A DNA stretch of 50,155 bases from a virus (Duplodnaviria > Heunggongvirae > Uroviricota > Caudoviricetes). Positions within the stretch are counted from its first letter, which is position 1; every line of letters begins with the position of its first letter. Shown one piece after another: positions 3,307-45,435 of the stretch. The stretch lies in IMG/VR virus record IMGVR_UViG_2870479586_000004. One strand, given 5' to 3'. The notes below the pieces were generated by a model that saw nothing but the letters and a program-made list of their open reading frames with translations, searched no databases and was not told the DNA's origin. Both the position numbers and the translations under genes were made by a program.

Positions 3307-3882
3307 CTACGGCAGTGCTGGCCATTCAATATCCTGTGCAGTTGACGTATCAACACGGTTCAGCAACACCCGATACTTTTTCCAGGCTTCCAGCAATGAG
3401 GTTTCTTCCTCCGTTGCGATTTCCAGATCTACAGCATCCTGAAGTGGCGCAATATGCTCACTGGCTACCTGCATCAGGCTGTTTTTTGTTTCTTCCGCCT
3501 CTCGGATCCGGAACAGTTTTTCTGCTTCTGCATCTTTCACCCAGGCTGTGCCGTTCCACTTCTGAAACTCCCCTTCCGGCGATAACCAGGTAACATTTTC
3601 CGGTAACGGACCGAGTTCAGAAATAAATAACGCGTCCCCTGACGCTACGTCATAAACCGTTTTACCCCGATGGTCTTCAACGAGATGCCACGATGCCTTA
3701 TCACTGTTGAAAACAGCCACAAAGCCAGCAGGAATATCTGGTGGTGCAATATCGGTACTGTTTGCTGGCAGACCTGTATGAGGCGGAATATATGCGTCAC
3801 CTTCACCAATAAATTCATTAGTTCCGGCCAGCAGATTATAAATTTTTATGGTCCGTGGTTGTTCACTCATTCTGAATGCCAT
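3307..3882 (-). CDS. tfa: tail fiber assembly protein (Tfa)
   Basis: 191 aa; recalled similarity to lambda/Qin Tfa; immediately downstream of stf. Confidence 0.9.
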
Positions 3883-6848
3883 TATGCAAGCCTCACAATA
3901 TAGTTAAATGCGATGTTTTTGACGGTGTTTTCCGCGTTACCAGCAGCGTTAACGGTGATGGTGTGTCCATGTGAACCAATCGCAACGGAGTGCGTATGAG
4001 CACCAATACCGACAGTATGCGCGTGTGCACCTGCAGATGCTGCTGTGCCGGACAGTGAATGGCTATGATTACCATCTGTACTGGTATTCGCTAACCACCC
4101 CGTAGACATACCTACTGAGCCTTGTACACCCCAGGTATTTTGACCTGAGCTTGTATAACCATATTGATAAGTATCTTTAAAAACACTGGGGTTAAATCGA
4201 CGGCCATCTCTATGGCTGTGATTACCAGCTGCATTCGTGCTGCCACTTAAACTATGGGTATGCGCACCAGTGTTATTCGTGGATTTAGTGCCGTAATCAA
4301 ACGACGATGTGTTTTTCGTCCCCAAATCCGTACTGGATGCGCTGGCGCTGTGGGTGTGCGATTTAATGCCGTCCTGTTCCTGAGACAATACGGCACGACC
4401 ACTGGCGGGTTTGCCCTTAATCGTCCAGCCACGCATATCAGGGATCACGCCTGACGGATAAGCGGCTGCAAGTTTCGGGTATGCAGATTTGTCAAAAGTC
4501 TGCCCCTGCATCAGGGCATAGCCAGACGGAACGGTATCTGATGGCCACGGGATTGGTGCGCCAGGCGGATAAAACTGCTCTGATGGCGTATAGAGTGAAT
4601 AAACTGTACCGTCCGTTAACCCTTCCGGCTTATTAGCAGAATATGCTGGTGACGTATGAATCGTCACGCTGGCATTACTGGTATAATCCCATTGAATATT
4701 TACACCAGTCGCATAATTTCCGATTGCAACGTAAATATCGTAAGTATCACCAGATGTATTGACCCAGGCAAAATTTGTAAACCCTGTCGATGTGCGCTGC
4801 CATAAAGCACCAGTAATCCCCTTCGGATTACCATTACCTGCACGTAAAACAAGTTCAGATATACCTGCCTGTTGAGGTGACCCCACGTTAAATCCAGCGC
4901 CACCAATCAACGTAATTGAAACAACAGAACTCGCCTGTGGCATGGTTACCGTTGCTAATTTGAACCAACCAGCACCACCGCTGAATGACATTGTTGTTGA
5001 GTTAAGCGTACCAATATCTTTCGGCGTCAGTGTTATATCCGCTGAAAGCGCCTTACCATTCACCTTACGGGCAGAAGGTACCCGACCATTCGCATTGTCA
5101 TTAGCTGCTTTCACTGCTTTCGGTGTCGCAGCAAGCGTTTCAGATGTGCTGTTGGTTGCACTACTGAGCTGGACAATTCCTTTTTGTGCTGTCGTAGCGT
5201 CCTGTGCGGTGTATTTCCCGTTAGCCAGGTCATACGCGGCCTTAACGGCTTTTGGCGTTGCCGCCTGTGACTCGGAAGTGCTGTTAGTCGCACTGCTGAG
5301 CTGAACTATCCCTTTCTGTGCTGTCGTTGCATCCTGTGCGGTGTATTTCCCGTTAGCCAGGTCATACGCGGCCTTAACGGCTTTTGGCGTTGCCGCCTGT
5401 GACTCGGAAGTGCTGTTGGTCGCACTGCTGAGCTGTACTATCCCCTTTTTCGTCGTGCTCGCATCCTCAAGCGCCACGGCGGATGCAATATCCTCTGCCC
5501 GTTTTGCTGCTGTCTCGGCGCGCGTTGCCGCGGATTCCGCCGTACTTTTGCTCTGTGCTGCCGCTGCCGCACTGCCAGCAGCCTCTGTCGCCTTCGTGGA
5601 TGCCGTCGTGGCGCTGCCCCTCGCTGCTGACGCCTGTCTGGTCGCCTCATCTTTTGAAGCAGACGCAGATGATGCCGATGACGCCGCCGAACTGGCGGAC
5701 GATGCGGCAGCCGTTTTTGAGGATTCTGCGCTGGTTTCCGACGCTTTCGCGTTCGTTTCGGATGTCTTCGCTGCGGAAGCAGACCTCGCTGCTGCGCTGG
5801 CCTGTTCAGTGGCTTCGCCAGCCTTCGTTGTGGCTGTTGAAGCGGATGATGCGGCGCTTTCTGCCGATTTTCCGGCGGCGGTGGCACTGACTGCTGCCTT
5901 CTCTGCCTTAATGGACGCCTCACGGGCCGATGATGCAGCTGCTGTCTCAGAGTCTGCCGCAGCTGAGGCGCTCTGTTCCGCTGCCGTTTCAGAAGACCTG
6001 GCATTCGTCTCGGACGTTTTTGCCGCCTTCACGGAATTTCCTGCCGCCGTTGCCGAGGAGGCTGCACTGCTGGCGCTTGTGGAGGCGTTCGTTTCTGATG
6101 ATTTCGCTGCCTCTTTTGAGGCCGCCGCATCCCGGGCTGAAGTGGCGGCTTCTGACGCTTTCGTCGTCGCAGTGGATGCAGAAGTGGCTGCTGATTTTTG
6201 TGACGCTGCAGCATTCGTTTCTGACGTTTTCGCCGCACCGGCACTGGTGGCCGCCGCGCTTTTTGAGGACTCTGCAGCGGCAGCACTTTTTGATGCTTCA
6301 GTGGCCTTTGTTGATGCCGTTCCTGCGCTGGAAGACGCCTCCTGAGCCGAAGTCGCGGCCTGTCCGGCTGACGTGCTGGCTGCACGCGCTGAGCCTGCAG
6401 CATCAGTCGCATGGGTTGCCGCCTCACGGGCTGATGTGCTGGCATCGCTGGCTGACTTCTTCGCGGCGGCTGTGTTCTGTGCCACCGCGGACGCGTTACG
6501 CGCCACCTCTTCCACCATCAGTTCAAAACGTCGCAGTGCCTCCGGACGGGCATCATCCTCCGTCATGGCACCGAGAAAATCATTCAGCGTACCGGGTTGA
6601 GAATCTTCATACACGGTGATGGTCCCGGCATGTGACGGCGGGAATCCCTCCACCAACAGAATAACGCTGTACTGACCGTACTCAACGTCCATACTGTAAC
6701 GCCCGGCTTCATCCGGATTTTCTGAGGCCAGCGTGTTCACCACCACAGTGGTACTGTTACGTTTTGCTTTCAGCTGGATTGTGCAGTTCTGTACCGGTTT
6801 TCCTGTGCCGTCTTTCAGTACACCTGAAATCTTTACTGCCATATTCAC
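3882..6848 (-). CDS. stf: side tail fiber protein (Stf), 988 aa
   Basis: N-terminus [29 protein letters not shown]... typical of lambda Stf; long Ala/Ser/Thr-rich shaft; 45-aa unit repeated three times; His-rich C-terminal region (HSHSLSG...[14 protein letters not shown]). Confidence 0.9.
5077..5452. repeat. tandem coding repeat inside stf, about 132-135 bp x3 (first copy diverged)
   Basis: Near-identical DNA copies at 5209-5340 and 5341-5450 with a diverged copy upstream; encodes the triplicated 45-aa unit [44 protein letters not shown]. Confidence 0.8.
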
Positions 6849-28114: not shown

Positions 28115-28385
28115 GATGTTACCGTAGTATGTGAGTATCCATCGAATAGATACCAAGCAAAAAAGCTCCCGAAGGAGCCTTCATTTTCACTTTTTTAAAT
28201 CCAACGACAGACGGCTGGCATTTAAGTATTGTGAAATATTATCAAATGTAATCATCATTGATTTACAAAAGATACATTTTGCCCCGAAAGGATTCATGTC
28301 AGAAACATCAAAAGATGATGTTCTATACTGGGAACCATGACAACACGGGCATCTAAAGTGAATATGGTTTGTAATATTGTCTACC

Positions 28386-28598
28386 TCAAAGCGCCACTAC
28401 ATGAACAGCGGCAGGACCTTTAGGTCCGTTCTCAATACCAAATTCAACTTCCTGATTCTCAGTTAATGTTTTGAAATCGTTGCTCTGAATTGCTGAGAAA
28501 TGGACAAACACATCTTTGCTGCCATCTTTCGGCGTGATGAAACCAAAACCTTTTTCAGGGTTAAACCATTTCACTAAACCAGTCATTTTGTTAGACAT
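28386..28598 (-). CDS. cspI: cold-shock protein CspA-family, 70 aa
   Basis: [70 protein letters not shown]; RNP1/RNP2 motifs. Confidence 0.9.
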
Positions 28599-28961
28599 AA
28601 TTATTACCTTTTGAAGAAATTAGCCCTTGGGCAGAATGGTCCGAAAAAAAATATCAGAGAGAAAAACCAACAAGGAAATCTCAAGAGGTACAAATAATAA
28701 AATTATAACAATGACTGCTTCAGATAAATTTGTAACAAACCAGAACACCATTAACGCATGATTAACCACCCATAGCAAGGATTACTTTTGTAAAGAAAAA
28801 CACAGCAATGAAAGAATAGCTTTATTTATTAATAATAACGTGTCATTCTGATTAAGACCTTTTATCTTACCCTTAAGATTTCAGGAATTTTGGCTCATGG
28901 AAGAGTCCTTTTTATTTAAATTTTACATTCCGCGATGTAAATGTTCCGATTTAATATTACC

Positions 28962-30988: not shown

Positions 30989-31270
30989 TGAGATTGTGGT
31001 GCTTTTTGTGGGAGTCATCCACTTACGCACTTTGTTTTGCCATGCCAGCAGTTAGCTTCTGCTGTAAAACTATTCATGCAGCAAACCTGCACTTCACCAC
31101 AATGGTTAGCATACTTTTCCTGATTAAGATTTTGCCAAATATGCTAGCCATTGTTTCATGTATTGGACCTCCTTACTTTTTATTAAAGAGATCCAATATT
31201 CACTACTCTGTCCGTATCTCTACTCAGGCATCAGCCTTCTTCGTTATCGTATACAGACGAGCGATGAATT

Positions 31271-31486
31271 TTAATCAGTAATGATGACATTTGCTGCTGC
31301 AGGACCTTTAGCACCACTCTCTATAGAGAAGGTAACCTTTTGACCTTCAAATAAGGTTCGATAATTATCATTCTGAATCGCAGAAAAATGCACAAACACA
31401 TCTTTACTACCATCAACAGGAGAAATAAAGCCGAAACCTTTATCAGCGTTAAACCATTTTACTAAACCAGTCATTTTATTTGACAT
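31271..31486 (-). CDS. cspB: cold-shock protein CspA-family, 71 aa
   Basis: [71 protein letters not shown]. Confidence 0.9.
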
Positions 31487-31786
31487 TCTACATTCCTTAA
31501 CTTGAGCCTTTCGGCATAAATGGTTTGCATAACAGAAACGACTTCGTACTTAATTGGAGAGACTCAAAGAAGGAATAAGTGAATAACACCTGAAATGAGA
31601 ACTGCTTTAGTAAACTACTTCGTATATCGTCTGTTCTTCAAACCGACGCAATCATTAACGCATAGTTGAACATATGAAGCAATGTTTATTTTAGACATCC
31701 AGCCATCTTCAACCCCATCAAAAAACTATAGCTTTCTTCAGGAACGTGTGTATAGTGCGCCAAGTTATCAGTATTAAGGAATTTTT

Positions 31787-35050: not shown

Positions 35051-35206
35051 TTACTCCTCAGGTTCGTAAGCTGTGAAGACAGCGACCTCCGTCTGGCCGG
35101 TTCGGATTCGTACCTCGCAGAGGTCTTTCCTCGTTACCAGTGCCGTCACTATGACGGTTAAACAGATGACGATCAGGGCGATTAACATCGCCTTTTGCTG
35201 CTTCAT
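35051..35206 (-). CDS. hokD: Hok-family type I toxin (host-killing small membrane protein), 51 aa
   Basis: Minus-strand translation MKQQKAMLIALIVICLTVIVTALVTRKDLCEVRIRTGQTEVAVFTAYEPEE matches recalled HokD/RelF; below the ORF-track size cutoff. Confidence 0.9.
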   Translation of the reverse strand: MKQQKAMLIALIVICLTVIVTALVTRKDLCEVRIRTGQTEVAVFTAYEPEE

Positions 35207-35277
35207 AGCCTGCTTCTCCTGTCAACGCAAAGCAGAAGTGTCACCTTCGGTGCGAAACAGAGATGTCATGCTTTGGT

Positions 35278-37105: not shown

Positions 37106-38447
37106 TCAATCTTTTTTATCGGGATCAGGCTTCTTTTTAGGTAACTTCGGGGGCTTAACTTGCTGATGACTTTGCGTTCGGCGCGTAAGCCAGGGATGGT
37201 CAGCTTTAGGTTTAACATAGTATTTTGAGCGTAAATCAATACGGGCATTATCCACTCGTTCATGGACACTCTTTTCATCATCCAGTGGTATAGGCTCCGG
37301 GCCATCAACATACTTTTCCCAGCCCAGCGCTTTCCCGTCATACAGAACGTTAATTTCACCGTCAAAGTTCTCGCATACAGTAACAACCGAATGCCTAAGT
37401 CGATATCCCCGGCCCTCACTGCGTACCTGAAACGCACTGCTTTTGTACTGGAAAGTGAGATTTTTAGACAGAACGCGCTTCGCCTGTAGGCTGAAGATAT
37501 AACCCAGTTCCTCTTCAGAATGGTGCACATCAAGATGAGCATTATCAGTAGTACGAGGCGACGTAGCGAACCGGTTGTTATAGGCTTCAATAAAGGTCGG
37601 CAACCATGCATTTGCTGTTTCAATATCACTGATATTCTGAAGCCGCATTTCTTTGACCAGCCTGTCCTGTAGTGTCTGATTGGCGCGCTCTACCCGCCCT
37701 TTTGCCTGCGGGCTGTTGGCATGGATTGGCTCGATGCCCAGTGTCTTTATCGCACGAGTGAACTGGGTCAGCTCACCTTCCCGCTCTGGGTTATTTACCC
37801 TGAATATACTGTGTCTATCAGAGTAGAGAGCGAGCGGTACGCCATGATCATTAAGGTAACCCCGGAGGGTTTCCATGTAAGCCCGGGTTGTTTCAGCAGG
37901 CACAAAACGCAACGCCATCAACGCACTGGTGGTATCATCAATGAAAACGATCAGTGTACATCTGGGGCCTCGATTTTCAAACCAGTCATGAGGTGAGCCA
38001 TCAATCTGGATCAGTTCACCGTAAGAGGGTCGTCGCATGCGGCGTTGATATATACGGGCAATTTTACGACGGCGTTCACGCCATACCCCCCTCTTCTATC
38101 ATCCACTTTCTGAGAGTTTCAACGGATAAAGATAAACCGTGTATCTCGCGCAATTTTTCGCACGCAAACGTAGGTCCAAAATCAGCGTAACGGCCTTTGA
38201 GGAGTGAAATTACTGTTGCTCTGAATTCAGTAGAAAAGGAATTATTAGGACGCTTTCCACGTCGGTGGGAAACCAGACCAGAAGGCCCTTCATTTCTATA
38301 CCGTTGCACCAGACGTTTAACCTGCCGAATAGAAATGCCAATGCGTGCCGCAGCTTGTTCCTGAGTAATATGTCGATTAATTGACTCCTGAATAATCTGA
38401 AGTCGGTGGAGTTCCTTATGACTCATCGTAACAGTTTCTTTGGTCAT
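37106..38447 (-). pseudogene. DDE transposase (IS481/ISNCY-like) split into orfA (38076-38447) and orfB (37106-38038) at a C6 homopolymer (38086-38091)
   Basis: orfA has an HTH (ARIGISIRQVKRLVQRY); orfB has an rve core (IQIDGS...FIDDTTS...SPQAKGRVERANQTLQDRL); removing one base fuses them into about 446 codons; a -1 shift would not reach orfB. Confidence 0.7.
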
Positions 38448-38594
38448 GAAAAATCCCCCAGAGAATTGTCTGGGGACATTTTAGAATGGTTCAAAGGGGA
38501 CATTACAGCTTGGTGTTAACAATAGCCTGCTTCTCCTGTGTAAGTTCACAGAGATATTGCAATTGCCTCCGGATAAGTAAGGGGAGATTGCACT

Positions 38595-39683
38595 ATGCAA
38601 ATGCAGCATCTGATGGTTGGCTATCCTAAGTACTACCAAACGGCCGATTATGCGTTGAGGCTTTCAGTGATGGCTGATATAGCAACAATGAGAATGAAGG
38701 CTCTGCACTTCTGGGATAAACACGGTATTTCTGCAGCTTCTGAAGCCTTTGGCGTGTCCTGCCGCACGCTTTACTGGTGGCGTCAGTTACTGAACAAGGA
38801 AGGACCTGAGGGGCTAATCCCGCACAGTAAGGCACCTCTGGTGCGACGAAAAAAACACTGGCATCCCGATGTGCTGAAAGAGATTCGACGCCTCAGGACA
38901 GAGCTGCCGAACCTCGGTAAAGAGCAGATTTTTGTTCGCCTGAAGCCCTGGTGCGAACAGCGCTATCTGGCCTGTCCGAGTGTTTCCACCATCGGCAGAA
39001 TGATCGCTGCCGCACATGATAAAATGCGGATGATACCTGTGCGTCTGGGATCGCGGGGGAAGGCACTGCTTGTCAAAAAGCGGTCTGCCAAACCCCGCAG
39101 GCCAAAGCACTACCGCCCGGTAAAGACAGGTGAGCTCATTGGGATGGACGCCATTGAGCTCAGAATGGGCGAACTGCGTCGCTATGTCATCACCATGATC
39201 GACGAATGCAGCAATTACGCGCTGGCACTGGCTGTGCCGTCACTCAACAGTGATATCGTCAATCACTTCTTCAGCCGCGCAGCCCGGTTGTTCCCGGTCG
39301 GTATCAGCCAGATAATCACAGATAACGGAAAAGAGTTCCTGGGAAACTTCGACAAAACGCTGCAGGAAGCCGCTATCAAACACCTCTGGACCTATCCCTA
39401 CACGCCAAAAATGAACGCTATCTGTGAACGTTTTAACCGGACGTTAAGAGAGCAGTTTATTGAATTTAATGAGATTTTACTCTTTGAAGATCTGGCGCTA
39501 TTTAACCAGAAGCTGGCGGAATATCTGGTGCTGTATAACAGCAAAAGACCCCACAAGGCGCTCGCACTAATGACGCCCGTGGAATATATTTTAAAAGAGA
39601 ATAAAAATTGCAATATGTGGTGGACCCATACATCTCCTTGCCTTTCGGCACGTAAGAGGCTAACCTACATGTGTCTGGCATGA
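38595..39683 (+). CDS. DDE transposase, rve family (IS481-like), 362 aa
   Basis: N-terminal HTH (FGVSCRTLYWWRQ), rve core (GMDAIEL...ITDNGKEF...NAICERFNRTLRE). Confidence 0.75.
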   Translation: MQMQHLMVGYPKYYQTADYALRLSVMADIATMRMKALHFWDKHGISAASEAFGVSCRTLYWWRQLLNKEGPEGLIPHSKAPLVRRKKHWHPDVLKEIRRLRTELPNLGKEQIFVRLKPWCEQRYLACPSVSTIGRMIAAAHDKMRMIPVRLGSRGKALLVKKRSAKPRRPKHYRPVKTGELIGMDAIELRMGELRRYVITMIDECSNYALALAVPSLNSDIVNHFFSRAARLFPVGISQIITDNGKEFLGNFDKTLQEAAIKHLWTYPYTPKMNAICERFNRTLREQFIEFNEILLFEDLALFNQKLAEYLVLYNSKRPHKALALMTPVEYILKENKNCNMWWTHTSPCLSARKRLTYMCLA

Positions 39684-39882
39684 AATTGGCCTCAGATTAA
39701 TGTTAAGCGTCTTGCAGGACGCGTAATGTTAACTGGGGCTTTTCTCTACCTGCCGTTGGTGTTCGTGCCCGAGGCAGATAGCCTCAAGCACCCGCAGTCA
39801 TTCTACTTAACTAAGATTTCCCCGCAAACCGTTTTTGTCCAGCACAGTAAATATCCAACTAAACCAATGGAGTTCGCTGTAT

Positions 39883-40062
39883 TTACCGCCAGTATTCAAT
39901 GCACATGACCGCCATGAACACCCCTAAAAAAAGGGCATTTATATATCCAAATATTAATATCAAAACATCAACTTTTTCCATATACCTTGCTGTGAAGATG
40001 ATGGGCATACATGATGCGAACAACCAGAACGCAACAAACAAAAACTGCAATGCGTTTTTCAT
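39883..40062 (-). CDS. hypothetical small membrane protein, 59 aa, two predicted TM helices
   Basis: ATG at 40062 preceded by AGGAGG 5 nt upstream; MKNALQFLFVAFWLFASCMPIIFTARYMEKVDVLILIFGYINALFLGVFMAVMCIEYWR. Confidence 0.55.
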   Translation of the reverse strand: MKNALQFLFVAFWLFASCMPIIFTARYMEKVDVLILIFGYINALFLGVFMAVMCIEYWR

Positions 40063-40316
40063 TATTCCTCCTACAATCAATGTGCAATTACATTTAAACA
40101 CACCTCAATTTGGCCGGACATATAAATATCTAAACCAGAAAAAATCACTTACATAGCGTTACAAACTCTTTAGTCTAAAGGTTCATCGTAAAACATTCCC
40201 CATACTTATCAGTCCGTTCCGCGCCAGGTAGCTCATTGCTTTATCTGGCAACCTGTAATCAGGTTTCCGCTTTTTCAGTTGGCTGGTCGTTTAACCGACA
40301 TAGTTAACCCATTAAT

Positions 40317-40604
40317 CTAGTTGCCGGATGTTGGTGGATTTTCGCGTTTTAGTTGTTCATAAAAGTGCACAGCTTTAACCAATTCTTCTGATGTAACCGG
40401 GACTGGTGAGGCAGTGAATAAGGCCTGAATTTGATAGTTCGGCCTGTCGTTACAATCCTCTTTTTTCGGTACATATTTCCAGTCACCAGACCACTACTTC
40501 CCCTGAAAGTCCGTAACGCCTTTTTTCACGTAGCGATATCGCCATGTCACTGGTTTTGCTTGCCCCGCCGTTTCATGCCCTTCCTGATAATTAATCTCGC
40601 TCAT
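40317..40604 (-). pseudogene. 95-codon reading frame with a single in-frame TAG (plus-strand 40494-40496); hypothetical
   Basis: ATG at 40604 then MSEINYQEGHETAGQAKPVTWRYRYVKKGVTDFQGK-TAG-WSGDWKYVPKKEDCNDRPNYQIQALFTASPVPVTSEELVKAVHFYEQLKRENPPTSGN; protein-like composition on both sides of the stop. Confidence 0.4.
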
Positions 40605-40792
40605 TCATCGCCCCACTCATCACAATATGCTTCGACCGGAGTTTTTCCCGCTTCATAGTCATCACGCTAGGATTCGACATCAGCAGCACTTCCACCGCGT
40701 AACTCACCATAGTCCATTAATAGTTCATCCCGCTCTTCAAAACTGATGTTATATTTAGCTGAACAAAAATCAGCCACTTTGTTCTTCCTCAT
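40601..40792 (-). pseudogene. 63-codon reading frame with a single in-frame TAG (plus-strand 40667-40669); hypothetical
   Basis: ATG at 40792 then MRKNKVADFCSAKYNISFEERDELLMDYGELRGGSAADVES-TAG-RDDYEAGKTPVEAYCDEWGDE; overlaps the start of the next frame. Confidence 0.35.
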
Positions 40793-41214
40793 CGTCTTTT
40801 ATTTCGTGGTATGAGTAATTGCAGTAGTTAAAGAAAATTTCTTATGCTCCGTCATGAATTTCATCAGGTGTTGCGTCATCGTCCACTTCGAATACATCCT
40901 CAAAATCTCCACCAGCTATTCCCGTTTCAATAATAATTTTGAACTTTCGCATTTCACTACCGCCCTTTCGGGCGGCCTCCTGATGTTCTGAGGGTGCAGA
41001 AATCCATCCGGTTAAGGATTAAGTTTTATTTACAGAACTGAATTTAATTATTCAGATATACGTATCTGTAACCTTACGAATCTACTCACTGGATGCCTCT
41101 TTCATAAAAATAATCCAGTGGGTTTTATCGTTTTTTCCCTGTTCGTTGACAGATAACAGGCTTTCTATCTGTCAGTGCCAGAATCTGGCTTACCGGTATT
41201 TGCGTTTCATTCCA

Positions 41215-41571
41215 TTAAAAAATCAGAACGCCGTGCGGCCTCAACACCCGAAAAGCTTCTTTAAATCTCTGTCGCAAATCATCACGCCAGGCATCTTTAT
41301 TCAGCCGTCCATATTTCTTTCCCATCCAGGCGTTATCACCAACACGCTCAAGATGCGGAGGGTCTAATACAACCATCGAAAAAGATGCGTCTGCAAATGA
41401 TAATGCACGAAAATCTGCGATAATGTCAGGGCTGATAATCAAGCGTCTCCCATTGCGTAATGTGTATCCTTCTTTTCTGATATCGCTAAATATCGCCCGT
41501 TCGTCAGACTTATCGAACCAGAACATGCGGCTGCCACAGCACATATCAAGAATGGTTGCCGGTGCACTCAC
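41215..41571 (-). CDS. SAM-dependent DNA methyltransferase-like protein, short or truncated (118 aa)
   Basis: Motif I-like ILDMCCGS, motif IV DPPH, then LRPHGVLIF; TAA stop at 41215-41217 is followed in frame by 29 further sense codons; start overlaps upstream stop (ATGA). Confidence 0.55.
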   Translation of the reverse strand: MSAPATILDMCCGSRMFWFDKSDERAIFSDIRKEGYTLRNGRRLIISPDIIADFRALSFADASFSMVVLDPPHLERVGDNAWMGKKYGRLNKDAWRDDLRQRFKEAFRVLRPHGVLIF

Positions 41572-45377: not shown

Positions 45378-45435
45378 TTTCTGGTGACGTTTGGCGGTAT
45401 CAGTTTTACTCCGTGACTGCTCTGCCGCCGTTTTT
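45378..45435 (+). ncRNA. dicF: DicF small RNA (ftsZ-targeting antisense sRNA) within the dicB operon
   Basis: TTTCTGGTGACGTTTGGCGGTATCAGTTTTACTCCGTGACTGCTCTGCCGCCG followed by TTTTT matches recalled DicF almost exactly; upstream of dicB. Confidence 0.8.

Follow-up and report, generated by a model that had tools for sequence, protein, structure and literature searches.

A 59-codon reading frame upstream of hok/sok in a Qin-type prophage of Escherichia coli is probably a gene for a small membrane protein

The DNA analysed here, IMG/VR virus record IMGVR_UViG_2870479586_000004, is a stretch of 50,155 nucleotides (the window, to which all coordinates refer unless another record is named) that represents a Qin-type lambdoid prophage of Escherichia coli and carries a small open reading frame (ORF), ORF59, next to a hok/sok locus. 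ORF59 lies on the minus strand at 40062..39883, with the ATG at 40062-40060 and the stop codon at 39885-39883, and consists of 59 codons plus the stop; the 701-bp region around it is 99.9% identical to E. coli IAI1. Its product, MKNALQFLFVAFWLFASCMPIIFTARYMEKVDVLILIFGYINALFLGVFMAVMCIEYWR, has a grand average of hydropathy (GRAVY) of 1.27, and the ATG is preceded by a perfect Shine-Dalgarno sequence, AGGAGG, at 40067..40072 on the same strand. An earlier note on this DNA, made from the sequence alone, had drawn attention to a highly hydrophobic 59-aa ORF with such a Shine-Dalgarno sequence, and this description is borne out, with the correction that the spacer to the ATG measures 4 nt (AATA) rather than 5 nt. 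The note had also held that the ORF was missed by a 60-aa cutoff, and at this default cutoff only a 72-aa GTG-extended version (40101..39883) is indeed listed. The longer form stands in many GenBank records; we rejected it because the paralog described below has an in-frame stop six codons before its ATG, which fixes the 59-aa start. Upstream of ORF59 lies an intergenic or leader segment of about 128 nt (40063..40190, minus strand), part of a highly conserved block that starts at the end of the upstream gene. We place the coding sequence (CDS) at 39883..40062 on the ORF reading, together with coding constraint in the paralog, an AlphaFold2 hairpin and a lipobox rule, each of which is taken up below.

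Taken alone, the ORF and its Shine-Dalgarno sequence are not statistically decisive and do not go beyond chance, and it is the comparative evidence that makes ORF59 a gene. The arrangement AGGAGG-N3-9-ATG occurs five times in the window against 2.05 expected, a count of at least five being reached in 8 of 100 shuffles, and AGGGGG replaces AGGAGG in 18 of 86 related ORF59 copies. An exhaustive HMMER search of 1.84 billion representatives recovered a 59-aa relative with 41% identity (E = 1e-8), whose common form (P0046) is MRKILMYLCISIWIVISCVPIILTSEYLTEASIMALMFGHANALCIGVFISIIYIECWR. The two proteins align without a gap from M1 to R59, with 19 invariant columns and the same start and stop. Their DNA is 59% identical and differs most at the third codon position (58%, 71% and 47% identity at the first, second and third positions), and the proportions of nonsynonymous and synonymous differences (pN 0.34, pS 0.72) correspond to a dN/dS ratio of about 0.19, with dS saturated. 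The ORF59 frame is the single one open in both sequences, with 42% amino acid identity versus 24-31% in the other frames, and the flanking DNA, unlike the indel-free ORF, can be aligned only with indels. Since the paralog retains 59 codons without a gap, the substitutions are of the coding type and the other frames are closed, this comparison indicates that the ORF59 family is very probably a real protein-coding family. It comprises two deeply diverged lineages, seen in Escherichia and Shigella only; neither the exhaustive HMMER search nor a profile search built from both lineages found a third. A genome match (L007) that appeared as a third lineage with 53% identity was rejected as a degraded copy in a poor assembly.

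Antisense to ORF59, an 85-aa ORF occupies 39899-40156 on the plus strand, and we rejected it as a competing gene, given that it has no Shine-Dalgarno sequence and two stops in the paralog. This frame is an annotated CDS in phage PhiR42_1 (PV340562; 5206-5457 there), probably a mis-call in place of ORF59. Inside ORF59, an A7/T7 homopolymer at 39926-39932 is the site of frameshift variants found in databases, ...ALFFRGVHGGHVH followed by a stop and ...ALFLGGSWRS....

Of 5426 complete E. coli genomes, 1569 (29%) contain ORF59 DNA, always with at least 95% identity, and the carriers of this DNA include IAI1, ATCC 25922, ST131 isolates and deposited temperate phage genomes. In the protein databases GenBank and UniRef, it comes from E. 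coli and Shigella only, under the names 'hypothetical protein' or 'membrane protein'. The ORF is intact in 87 of 88 copies (87 loci plus the window), and among 87 copies its polymorphism amounts to 2.8 per 100 nt versus 9-10 in the intergenic DNA that flanks it (Fisher p = 0.007). K-12 does not carry ORF59: Qin of K-12 MG1655 (L095, 1641000-1651000) matches the window up to about 37290, inside the transposase region of an ISEsa1-like insertion sequence (IS), and then jumps to ydfX/dicC. The K-12 deletion extends from within this element to ydfX, and the orphan hok/sok leader, ORF59 and the replication-side genes are gone. The absence of ORF59 from K-12 implies that small-protein surveys in this strain would have missed it.

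The paralog occupies a different chromosomal site, between ttcA and uspF/ompN (the Rac attachment region) and beside an integrase fragment, and its DNA is found in 1045 of the 5426 complete genomes (19%) with at least 99% identity; none of the RefSeq records listed has an annotated feature there. ATCC 25922 carries both the paralog and ORF59. According to BLAST comparisons with the window and its relatives, the ttcA-uspF island (L009 3900-6300; the same in L008-L013) is an AT-rich, colinear and heavily deleted lambdoid remnant. In L009, it contains, in order, the integrase fragment, fragments of DUF1627 and DUF977 genes, the tail of the gene that lies upstream of ORF59, the paralog at 5001-5180 and a hok CDS fragment at 5235-5296. 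The paralog is the sole intact piece of this remnant, with the hok fragment about 55 nt past its stop, and a consensus extended -10, TGaTATAAT (TGATATAAT, L009 4918-4926), about 75 nt upstream. The persistence of a lone intact gene behind such a sequence suggests retention and tolerance of constitutive expression. In both lineages, an ORF59-type gene is located directly upstream of a hok/sok locus, and the hok fragment beside the paralog implies that this synteny is older than the split that left the two proteins 41% identical.

The hok/sok locus downstream of ORF59 in the window is on the same strand. Rfam family RF01794 (sok / hok leader) matches 39793..39627 with 100.5 bits (gathering score 59), starting 90 nt past the ORF59 stop, and together with alignment to loci with an intact hokD this delimits the hok mRNA leader with its sok antisense region at 39633..39793 (minus strand), behind a TAGAAT -10 at 39805-39800 that was recognised by eye. 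The leader lies directly downstream of ORF59 in all 88 copies examined, and a conserved exchange block spans the end of the upstream gene and ORF59 and continues into it. In ATCC 25922 and an ST131 strain, an intact hokD starts 258 nt past the ORF59 stop. In the window, the leader is intact as far as the hok Shine-Dalgarno sequence, in which an IS481-family element of about 1.1 kb (~38537..39632, plus strand; Pfam rve and helix-turn-helix (HTH) matches) is inserted with a TCTCC duplication; its 362-aa transposase ORF does not stop at the end of the element but continues to 39683, within the hok leader. The end of this element, the nearest IS, is about 250 nt from the ORF59 stop. The last 16 nt of the hok leader, AGGAGAAGCAGGCTAT (38522..38537, minus strand), from the hok Shine-Dalgarno sequence through the AT of the ATG, are stranded between the IS481-family element and the ISEsa1-like (IS1202-group) element, which occupies 37106..38521 (minus strand, left boundary approximate; HTH and rve_3 ORFs) and abuts the hok start codon. 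The junction of the ISEsa1-like element with the hok start (GGCTAT followed by TGTTAAC...) is common to IAI1, phage PhiR42_1 and 41 of 88 related loci. The hok coding sequence at this locus has been destroyed by two IS insertions, and ORF59 is intact. The two elements account for the IS region that the earlier note had placed next to ORF59. Its statement that no antisense RNA was evident holds insofar as sok pairs with hok and not with ORF59, and fails insofar as the hok/sok leader 90 nt downstream had been overlooked.

Some further observations concern the hok locus and its insertions. The IS481-family insertion lies 10-15 nt from the older ISEsa1-like junction, and copies of the IS481-family element with 99.9-100% identity reach up to 38 per genome, often on plasmids. 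The 16-mer AGGAGAAGCAGGCTAT occurs exactly twice in the window (35205-35220 and 38522-38537, minus strand; 0 expected by chance): the first copy is directly before hokD of relB-relE-hokD, and the second ends the orphan hok/sok leader by ORF59. The 3.3 kb between them comprise relBE, ydfV, flxA, ydfW and the ISEsa1-like element, and the sequence suggests that this stretch was inserted into what had been a single hok/sok locus, splitting it and duplicating 16 bp; this would explain why hokD/relF is fused to relBE and has no sok/mok leader.

On the IAI1-based map, read from right to left in the window, the prophage starts with dicA/dicC (cI- and cro-like), a ydaT-like gene, replication protein O (a label taken from the annotation in phage PhiR42_1) and a DUF977 gene, and continues with three pseudogenes (methyltransferase, DUF7167, hypothetical), ORF59, an unannotated stretch and the ISEsa1-like IS. 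These are followed by ydfW, flxA, ydfV, relB-relE-hokD, rem, ydfU and ydfT (Q), and then by the lysis cassette (essD, ydfR, rrrQ, rzpQ) and the head and tail genes. On this map, ORF59 therefore belongs to the early-right, nin-like region, with the replication genes on one side and the Q antiterminator on the other. Its upstream neighbour is a decayed, frameshifted hypothetical gene at 40183..40604 (minus strand; a pseudogene of the Prokaryotic Genome Annotation Pipeline (PGAP) in IAI1, mapped to the window), whose C-terminal ...NGLISxxxVLR tail, ending at the stop, is also recognisable upstream of the paralog. In the IAI1 prophage, which is nearly identical, all three genes 5' of ORF59 (40183-41571, minus strand; hypothetical, DUF7167 and S-adenosylmethionine-dependent methyltransferase) are annotated as pseudogenes with frameshifts or internal stops, whereas ORF59 is intact. 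Elsewhere in the window, Rfam matches above the gathering score include IS009 (227 bits, 3341-3539), the DicF small RNA (45379-45430) and two cspA-type thermoregulator leaders at 28359-28744 and 31255-31647, where the IAI1 map has cspI and cspB. These matches are consistent with a Qin-type prophage.

At the protein level, ORF59 has hydrophobic stretches at about residues 4-24 and 33-55, and an AlphaFold2 model based on an 11-sequence alignment folds it as a helical hairpin (residues 2-24 and 31-58; mean pLDDT, the predicted local distance difference test score, 74). We infer from this model that ORF59 is a small integral membrane protein with two hydrophobic segments. A homology search had been proposed beforehand as a check, and the distant paralog that it found supports the gene. 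The block best conserved in both lineages is S17-C18-[MV]-P20-I-I-[FL]-T24. Conservation in the second segment concerns F38-G39-x-x-N42-A43-L44-x-x-G47-V-F49, which presents a small-xxx-small-xxx-small face (G39xxxA43xxxG47) with a buried Asn, and the C-terminus, I-E-x-W-R, is conserved as well; the tail after the second helix has only four residues (EYWR or ECWR).

No described family could be assigned to ORF59. Pfam gave none at E values up to 1, the Hok family and the lipoprotein-attachment models included; PHROGs gave no match, holin families included; NCBIfam contained no relative, a PDB profile search returned 0 matches, and PADLOC returned 0 defence matches. A sub-threshold match to TIGR03647 (14.5 bits versus a cutoff of 26) was dismissed as compositional, and a Foldseek search against viral models (BFVD) returned only non-significant helical hairpins (best E = 1.6). 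By these sequence and structure comparisons, the ORF59 family lies outside every described family tested and appears to resemble other phage-borne small membrane proteins in kind.

We consider the best explanation of these data, with a probability of about 0.6, to be that ORF59 is a genuine Qin-type prophage gene, unannotated in the RefSeq records examined, for a 59-residue integral membrane protein that would act as a non-lethal accessory factor. In this model, ORF59 would be transcribed with the early-right operon and efficiently translated from the exposed AGGAGG, and the product would insert into the inner membrane as an N-in/C-in helical hairpin or, alternatively, be cleaved at the lipobox formed by the invariant Ser17 and Cys18 to yield a lipid-bearing peptide of 42 residues with its one membrane helix at the C-terminus. 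The conserved faces (S17, C18, P20 and T24; G39, N42, A43 and G47) and the C-terminal E-x-W-R could then mediate self-association or the binding of a host membrane protein, and the protein would benefit the lysogen or the phage as an accessory factor of the exclusion or membrane-modulator type rather than as a killer. Taken by itself, this assignment of function is tentative, with odds below even. We favour it over a toxin because ORF59 has survived both the loss of hok and the decay of neighbouring genes to pseudogenes, and because the paralog stands alone and intact behind a strong promoter in 1045 genomes; no structured leader was found at ORF59, which also speaks for a non-lethal role.

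Two groups of known proteins offer parallels for such a role. The exclusion factors T4 Imm, HK97 gp15, T5 Llp and phi80/HK022 Cor act at the envelope without killing the host. They are, like the predicted ORF59 product, short membrane-anchored proteins, made by temperate or lytic phages; moreover, ORF59 has a lipobox-like Ser-Cys, and an extended -10 belonging to the paralog itself recalls an accessory 'moron' gene. A base composition distinct from that of its neighbours, another trait of morons, is seen in the window, with a GC content of 0.355-0.365 over 39800-40199 versus 0.42-0.51 in the adjoining DNA; the window copy has neither a consensus promoter nor a terminator of its own. However, no sequence or fold relationship to these factors was detected (PHROGs, PADLOC, PDB profile, Foldseek), and ORF59 is located in the early-right region and not near tail or immunity genes. 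The second group comprises AcrZ, MgtS, MgrB and CydX, which act by binding larger membrane proteins. ORF59 shares with them a length of fewer than 60 aa and the fact of having been missed by annotation, and its paralog looks domesticated and stand-alone in phylogroup-B2-type chromosomes. These regulators, in contrast, are mostly single-helix proteins whose genes are retained throughout the enterobacteria, alongside or together with those of their partners, whereas the ORF59 family is prophage-borne, has two segments and is restricted to Escherichia and Shigella.

A variant of the best explanation with a different topology and maturation, which we regard as possible, albeit with odds well below even, is that ORF59 encodes a lipoprotein precursor. 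In this precursor, a type II signal peptide would occupy residues 1-17, and processing by Lgt and LspA between Ser17 and Cys18 would release a mature product of 42 residues that carries a lipid and a single C-terminal membrane helix, a miniature of the layout that combines a lipobox with a C-terminal transmembrane (TM) domain. We examined the PROSITE lipobox rule (a basic N-terminal residue, a hydrophobic core and [LVI..][AST..][GAS]C, with the Cys at 15-35), and both lineages conform to it, with K/R in the first seven residues, a hydrophobic core, and [AGS]-C at Cys18; composition-preserving shuffles match at a rate of 2.5-8%. Ser17 and Cys18 are invariant within the best conserved block, and in the two-lineage alignment residues 1-17 are less conserved (5/17) than residues 18-59 (19/42). 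On the other side, the residues that follow the Cys are hydrophobic (MPIIFT or VPIILT), the sequences FASC and VISC are atypical lipoboxes for E. coli, and the Pfam search returned none of the lipoprotein-attachment models. That AlphaFold2 builds residues 2-24 as one continuous helix is a weak argument against cleavage.

Less probable, and in our view unlikely, is that ORF59 is a small membrane toxin, type I-like or a holin- or pinholin-like pore former, that would collapse the membrane potential under an unrecognised control element. Such functions had been suggested in the earlier note, and ORF59 has the general appearance of a type I toxin, being small (under 60 aa), very hydrophobic and preceded by a strong Shine-Dalgarno sequence. 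It also lies among toxin-antitoxin modules, with hok/sok directly downstream and relBE-hokD about 4.7 kb further; the small-xxx-small motif of its second helix and the database frameshift variants at the T7 run point in the same direction. However, no antisense sigma-70-like promoter was found near ORF59, the antisense promoter-like sites of the paralog are not shared, and no antisense promoter or terminator was seen to be conserved, the hok/sok leader being the only nearby Rfam match. The sole terminator-like hairpin nearby on the plus strand (40250-40275) was considered as the end of an antisense RNA and rejected, as it is not conserved: it lies inside the decayed upstream gene, its stem is mutated and its T-run deleted in ST131-type copies, and ATCC 25922 lacks it altogether. 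A structured leader is typical of type I toxins. In the ORF59 leader, in contrast, we found neither unusually stable RNA structure nor sequestration of the Shine-Dalgarno sequence, with z-scores near 0 versus shuffles (+0.45 for -110..+30 and +0.33 for -60..+30, that is, +0.3 to +0.45 at the start region; -0.23 for the paralog start region).

The comparison with specific toxin and holin families leads in the same direction. Hok/Gef proteins of hok/sok systems are, like ORF59, small hydrophobic inner-membrane peptides of lambdoid prophages, and the neighbouring hok/sok locus shares with it both the nin-like region and the strand. ORF59 nevertheless has no sequence similarity to them and no Pfam Hok match, contains two hydrophobic segments where Hok has one, and comes without an overlapping mok-like frame, a Sok-type antisense partner or a folded leader. 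Class II holins or pinholins, such as S21-68 of phage 21, have two TM segments in an N-in/C-in arrangement, and ORF59 resembles them in length (about 60-70 residues), in having two TM segments within the 60-100 aa or so of a holin, in its predicted topology and in the small-xxx-small-xxx-small second helix. Unlike these holins, ORF59 has neither a charged cytoplasmic C-terminal tail (its tail is EYWR) nor a dual-start motif, and PHROGs gave no holin match. Nor is it beside an endolysin: ORF59 is upstream of Q (ydfT), and the prophage has its own lysis cassette, essD-ydfR-rrrQ-rzpQ, downstream of Q and far off on the IAI1 map. Additionally, the paralog persists as a lone intact gene downstream of a consensus extended -10, an arrangement that a host could hardly sustain if the product were an uncontrolled toxin, and ORF59 has no Pfam or PADLOC match.

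The constant position of ORF59 raises the question of a functional tie to hok/sok, with ORF59 as a second membrane effector, as a modulator of Hok, or as the source of a transcript that reads into the hok leader and alters its control. No terminator was found between ORF59 and the hok leader, and since ORF59 in the window has no consensus promoter or terminator of its own in its flanks, read-through into the leader is likely on sequence grounds. The invariable adjacency of the leader in the 88 copies, the old synteny indicated by the hok fragment beside the paralog, and the exchange block, which starts at the end of the upstream gene, covers ORF59 and reaches into the leader, all fit such a tie. 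We nevertheless hold it to be quite improbable, because ORF59 is intact where hok is destroyed (the 41 of 88 loci with the ISEsa1-like element at the hok ATG, the window and the paralog island), because the leader occurs in about 4044 genomes versus 1569 with ORF59, as at hokW/sokW of 933W, which has no ORF59, and because hok/sok is self-sufficient.

Several points weigh against the best explanation. There is no annotated RefSeq or PGAP feature at ORF59 among the records listed, no sigma-70 consensus promoter was found upstream of it in the window (40063..40190), and the peptide is not mentioned in the literature searched or in the supplements of the Sakai Ribo-seq and Enterobacteriaceae microproteome papers; in this regard, the earlier description of ORF59 as strongly translated was drawn from its Shine-Dalgarno sequence, and these peptide searches found no expression data. 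With only two lineages, the evolutionary test amounts to one deep comparison with saturated dS. Within the ORF59 lineage, the five polymorphic sites are all nonsynonymous, with 0 synonymous, which fits neutrality (p = 0.34); the within-lineage dN/dS is uninformative and the close copies carry little information, and the low diversity could reflect a recent recombination block instead of selection. The coding strand around ORF59 is T-rich, with a GC content of about 0.36, a composition that favours hydrophobic ORFs by itself, and a survey of intergenic small ORFs in enterobacteria reports that AT-rich DNA yields hydrophobic ORFs (PMC11188072); the hydrophobicity of ORF59 is thus partly a by-product of its T-rich DNA. 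As to the functional part of the explanation, PADLOC, PHROGs and Foldseek gave nothing that bears on what ORF59 does.

The missing annotation, the narrow taxonomic range, the five-to-zero excess of nonsynonymous sites, the non-significance of AGGAGG-ATG by itself and the AT-rich composition would together suit an ORF without function that arose by chance in AT-rich intergenic DNA, behind an equally accidental Shine-Dalgarno sequence, but we judge this the least probable of the alternatives and a decidedly poor account of a paralog that keeps 59 codons, start and stop without an indel at 59% nucleotide identity, between flanks that need indels, of a coding-like codon-position pattern and dN/dS with the other frames closed, of a diversity below that of the flanking intergenic DNA, and of survival amid pseudogenised neighbours and in a heavily deleted remnant.

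With the comparative evidence that ORF59 is a gene, the phage-borne small membrane proteins gain a further family, and the conservation of ORF59 offers residues for mutation, namely S17, C18, P20, N42, the G39/A43/G47 face and E56-x-W-R. If ORF59 were found to exclude phages, to modulate a host transporter or to interact with Hok, it would be useful for understanding the effects of prophages on fitness; otherwise, it would be an ordinary hypothetical accessory gene. As a long shot, it is tempting to imagine the ORF59 family as an unrecognised class of phage micro-proteins, lipidated or hairpin-shaped peptides of the inner membrane, that has long travelled with hok/sok and tunes the membrane response to Hok-type killing or phage entry, or whose stand-alone copy with its own promoter, at the ttcA site in B2-type E. 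coli, now serves the host as a domesticated membrane regulator. If true, a classic toxin-antitoxin module would acquire a new functional partner, and E. coli a host factor that is widespread yet unannotated.

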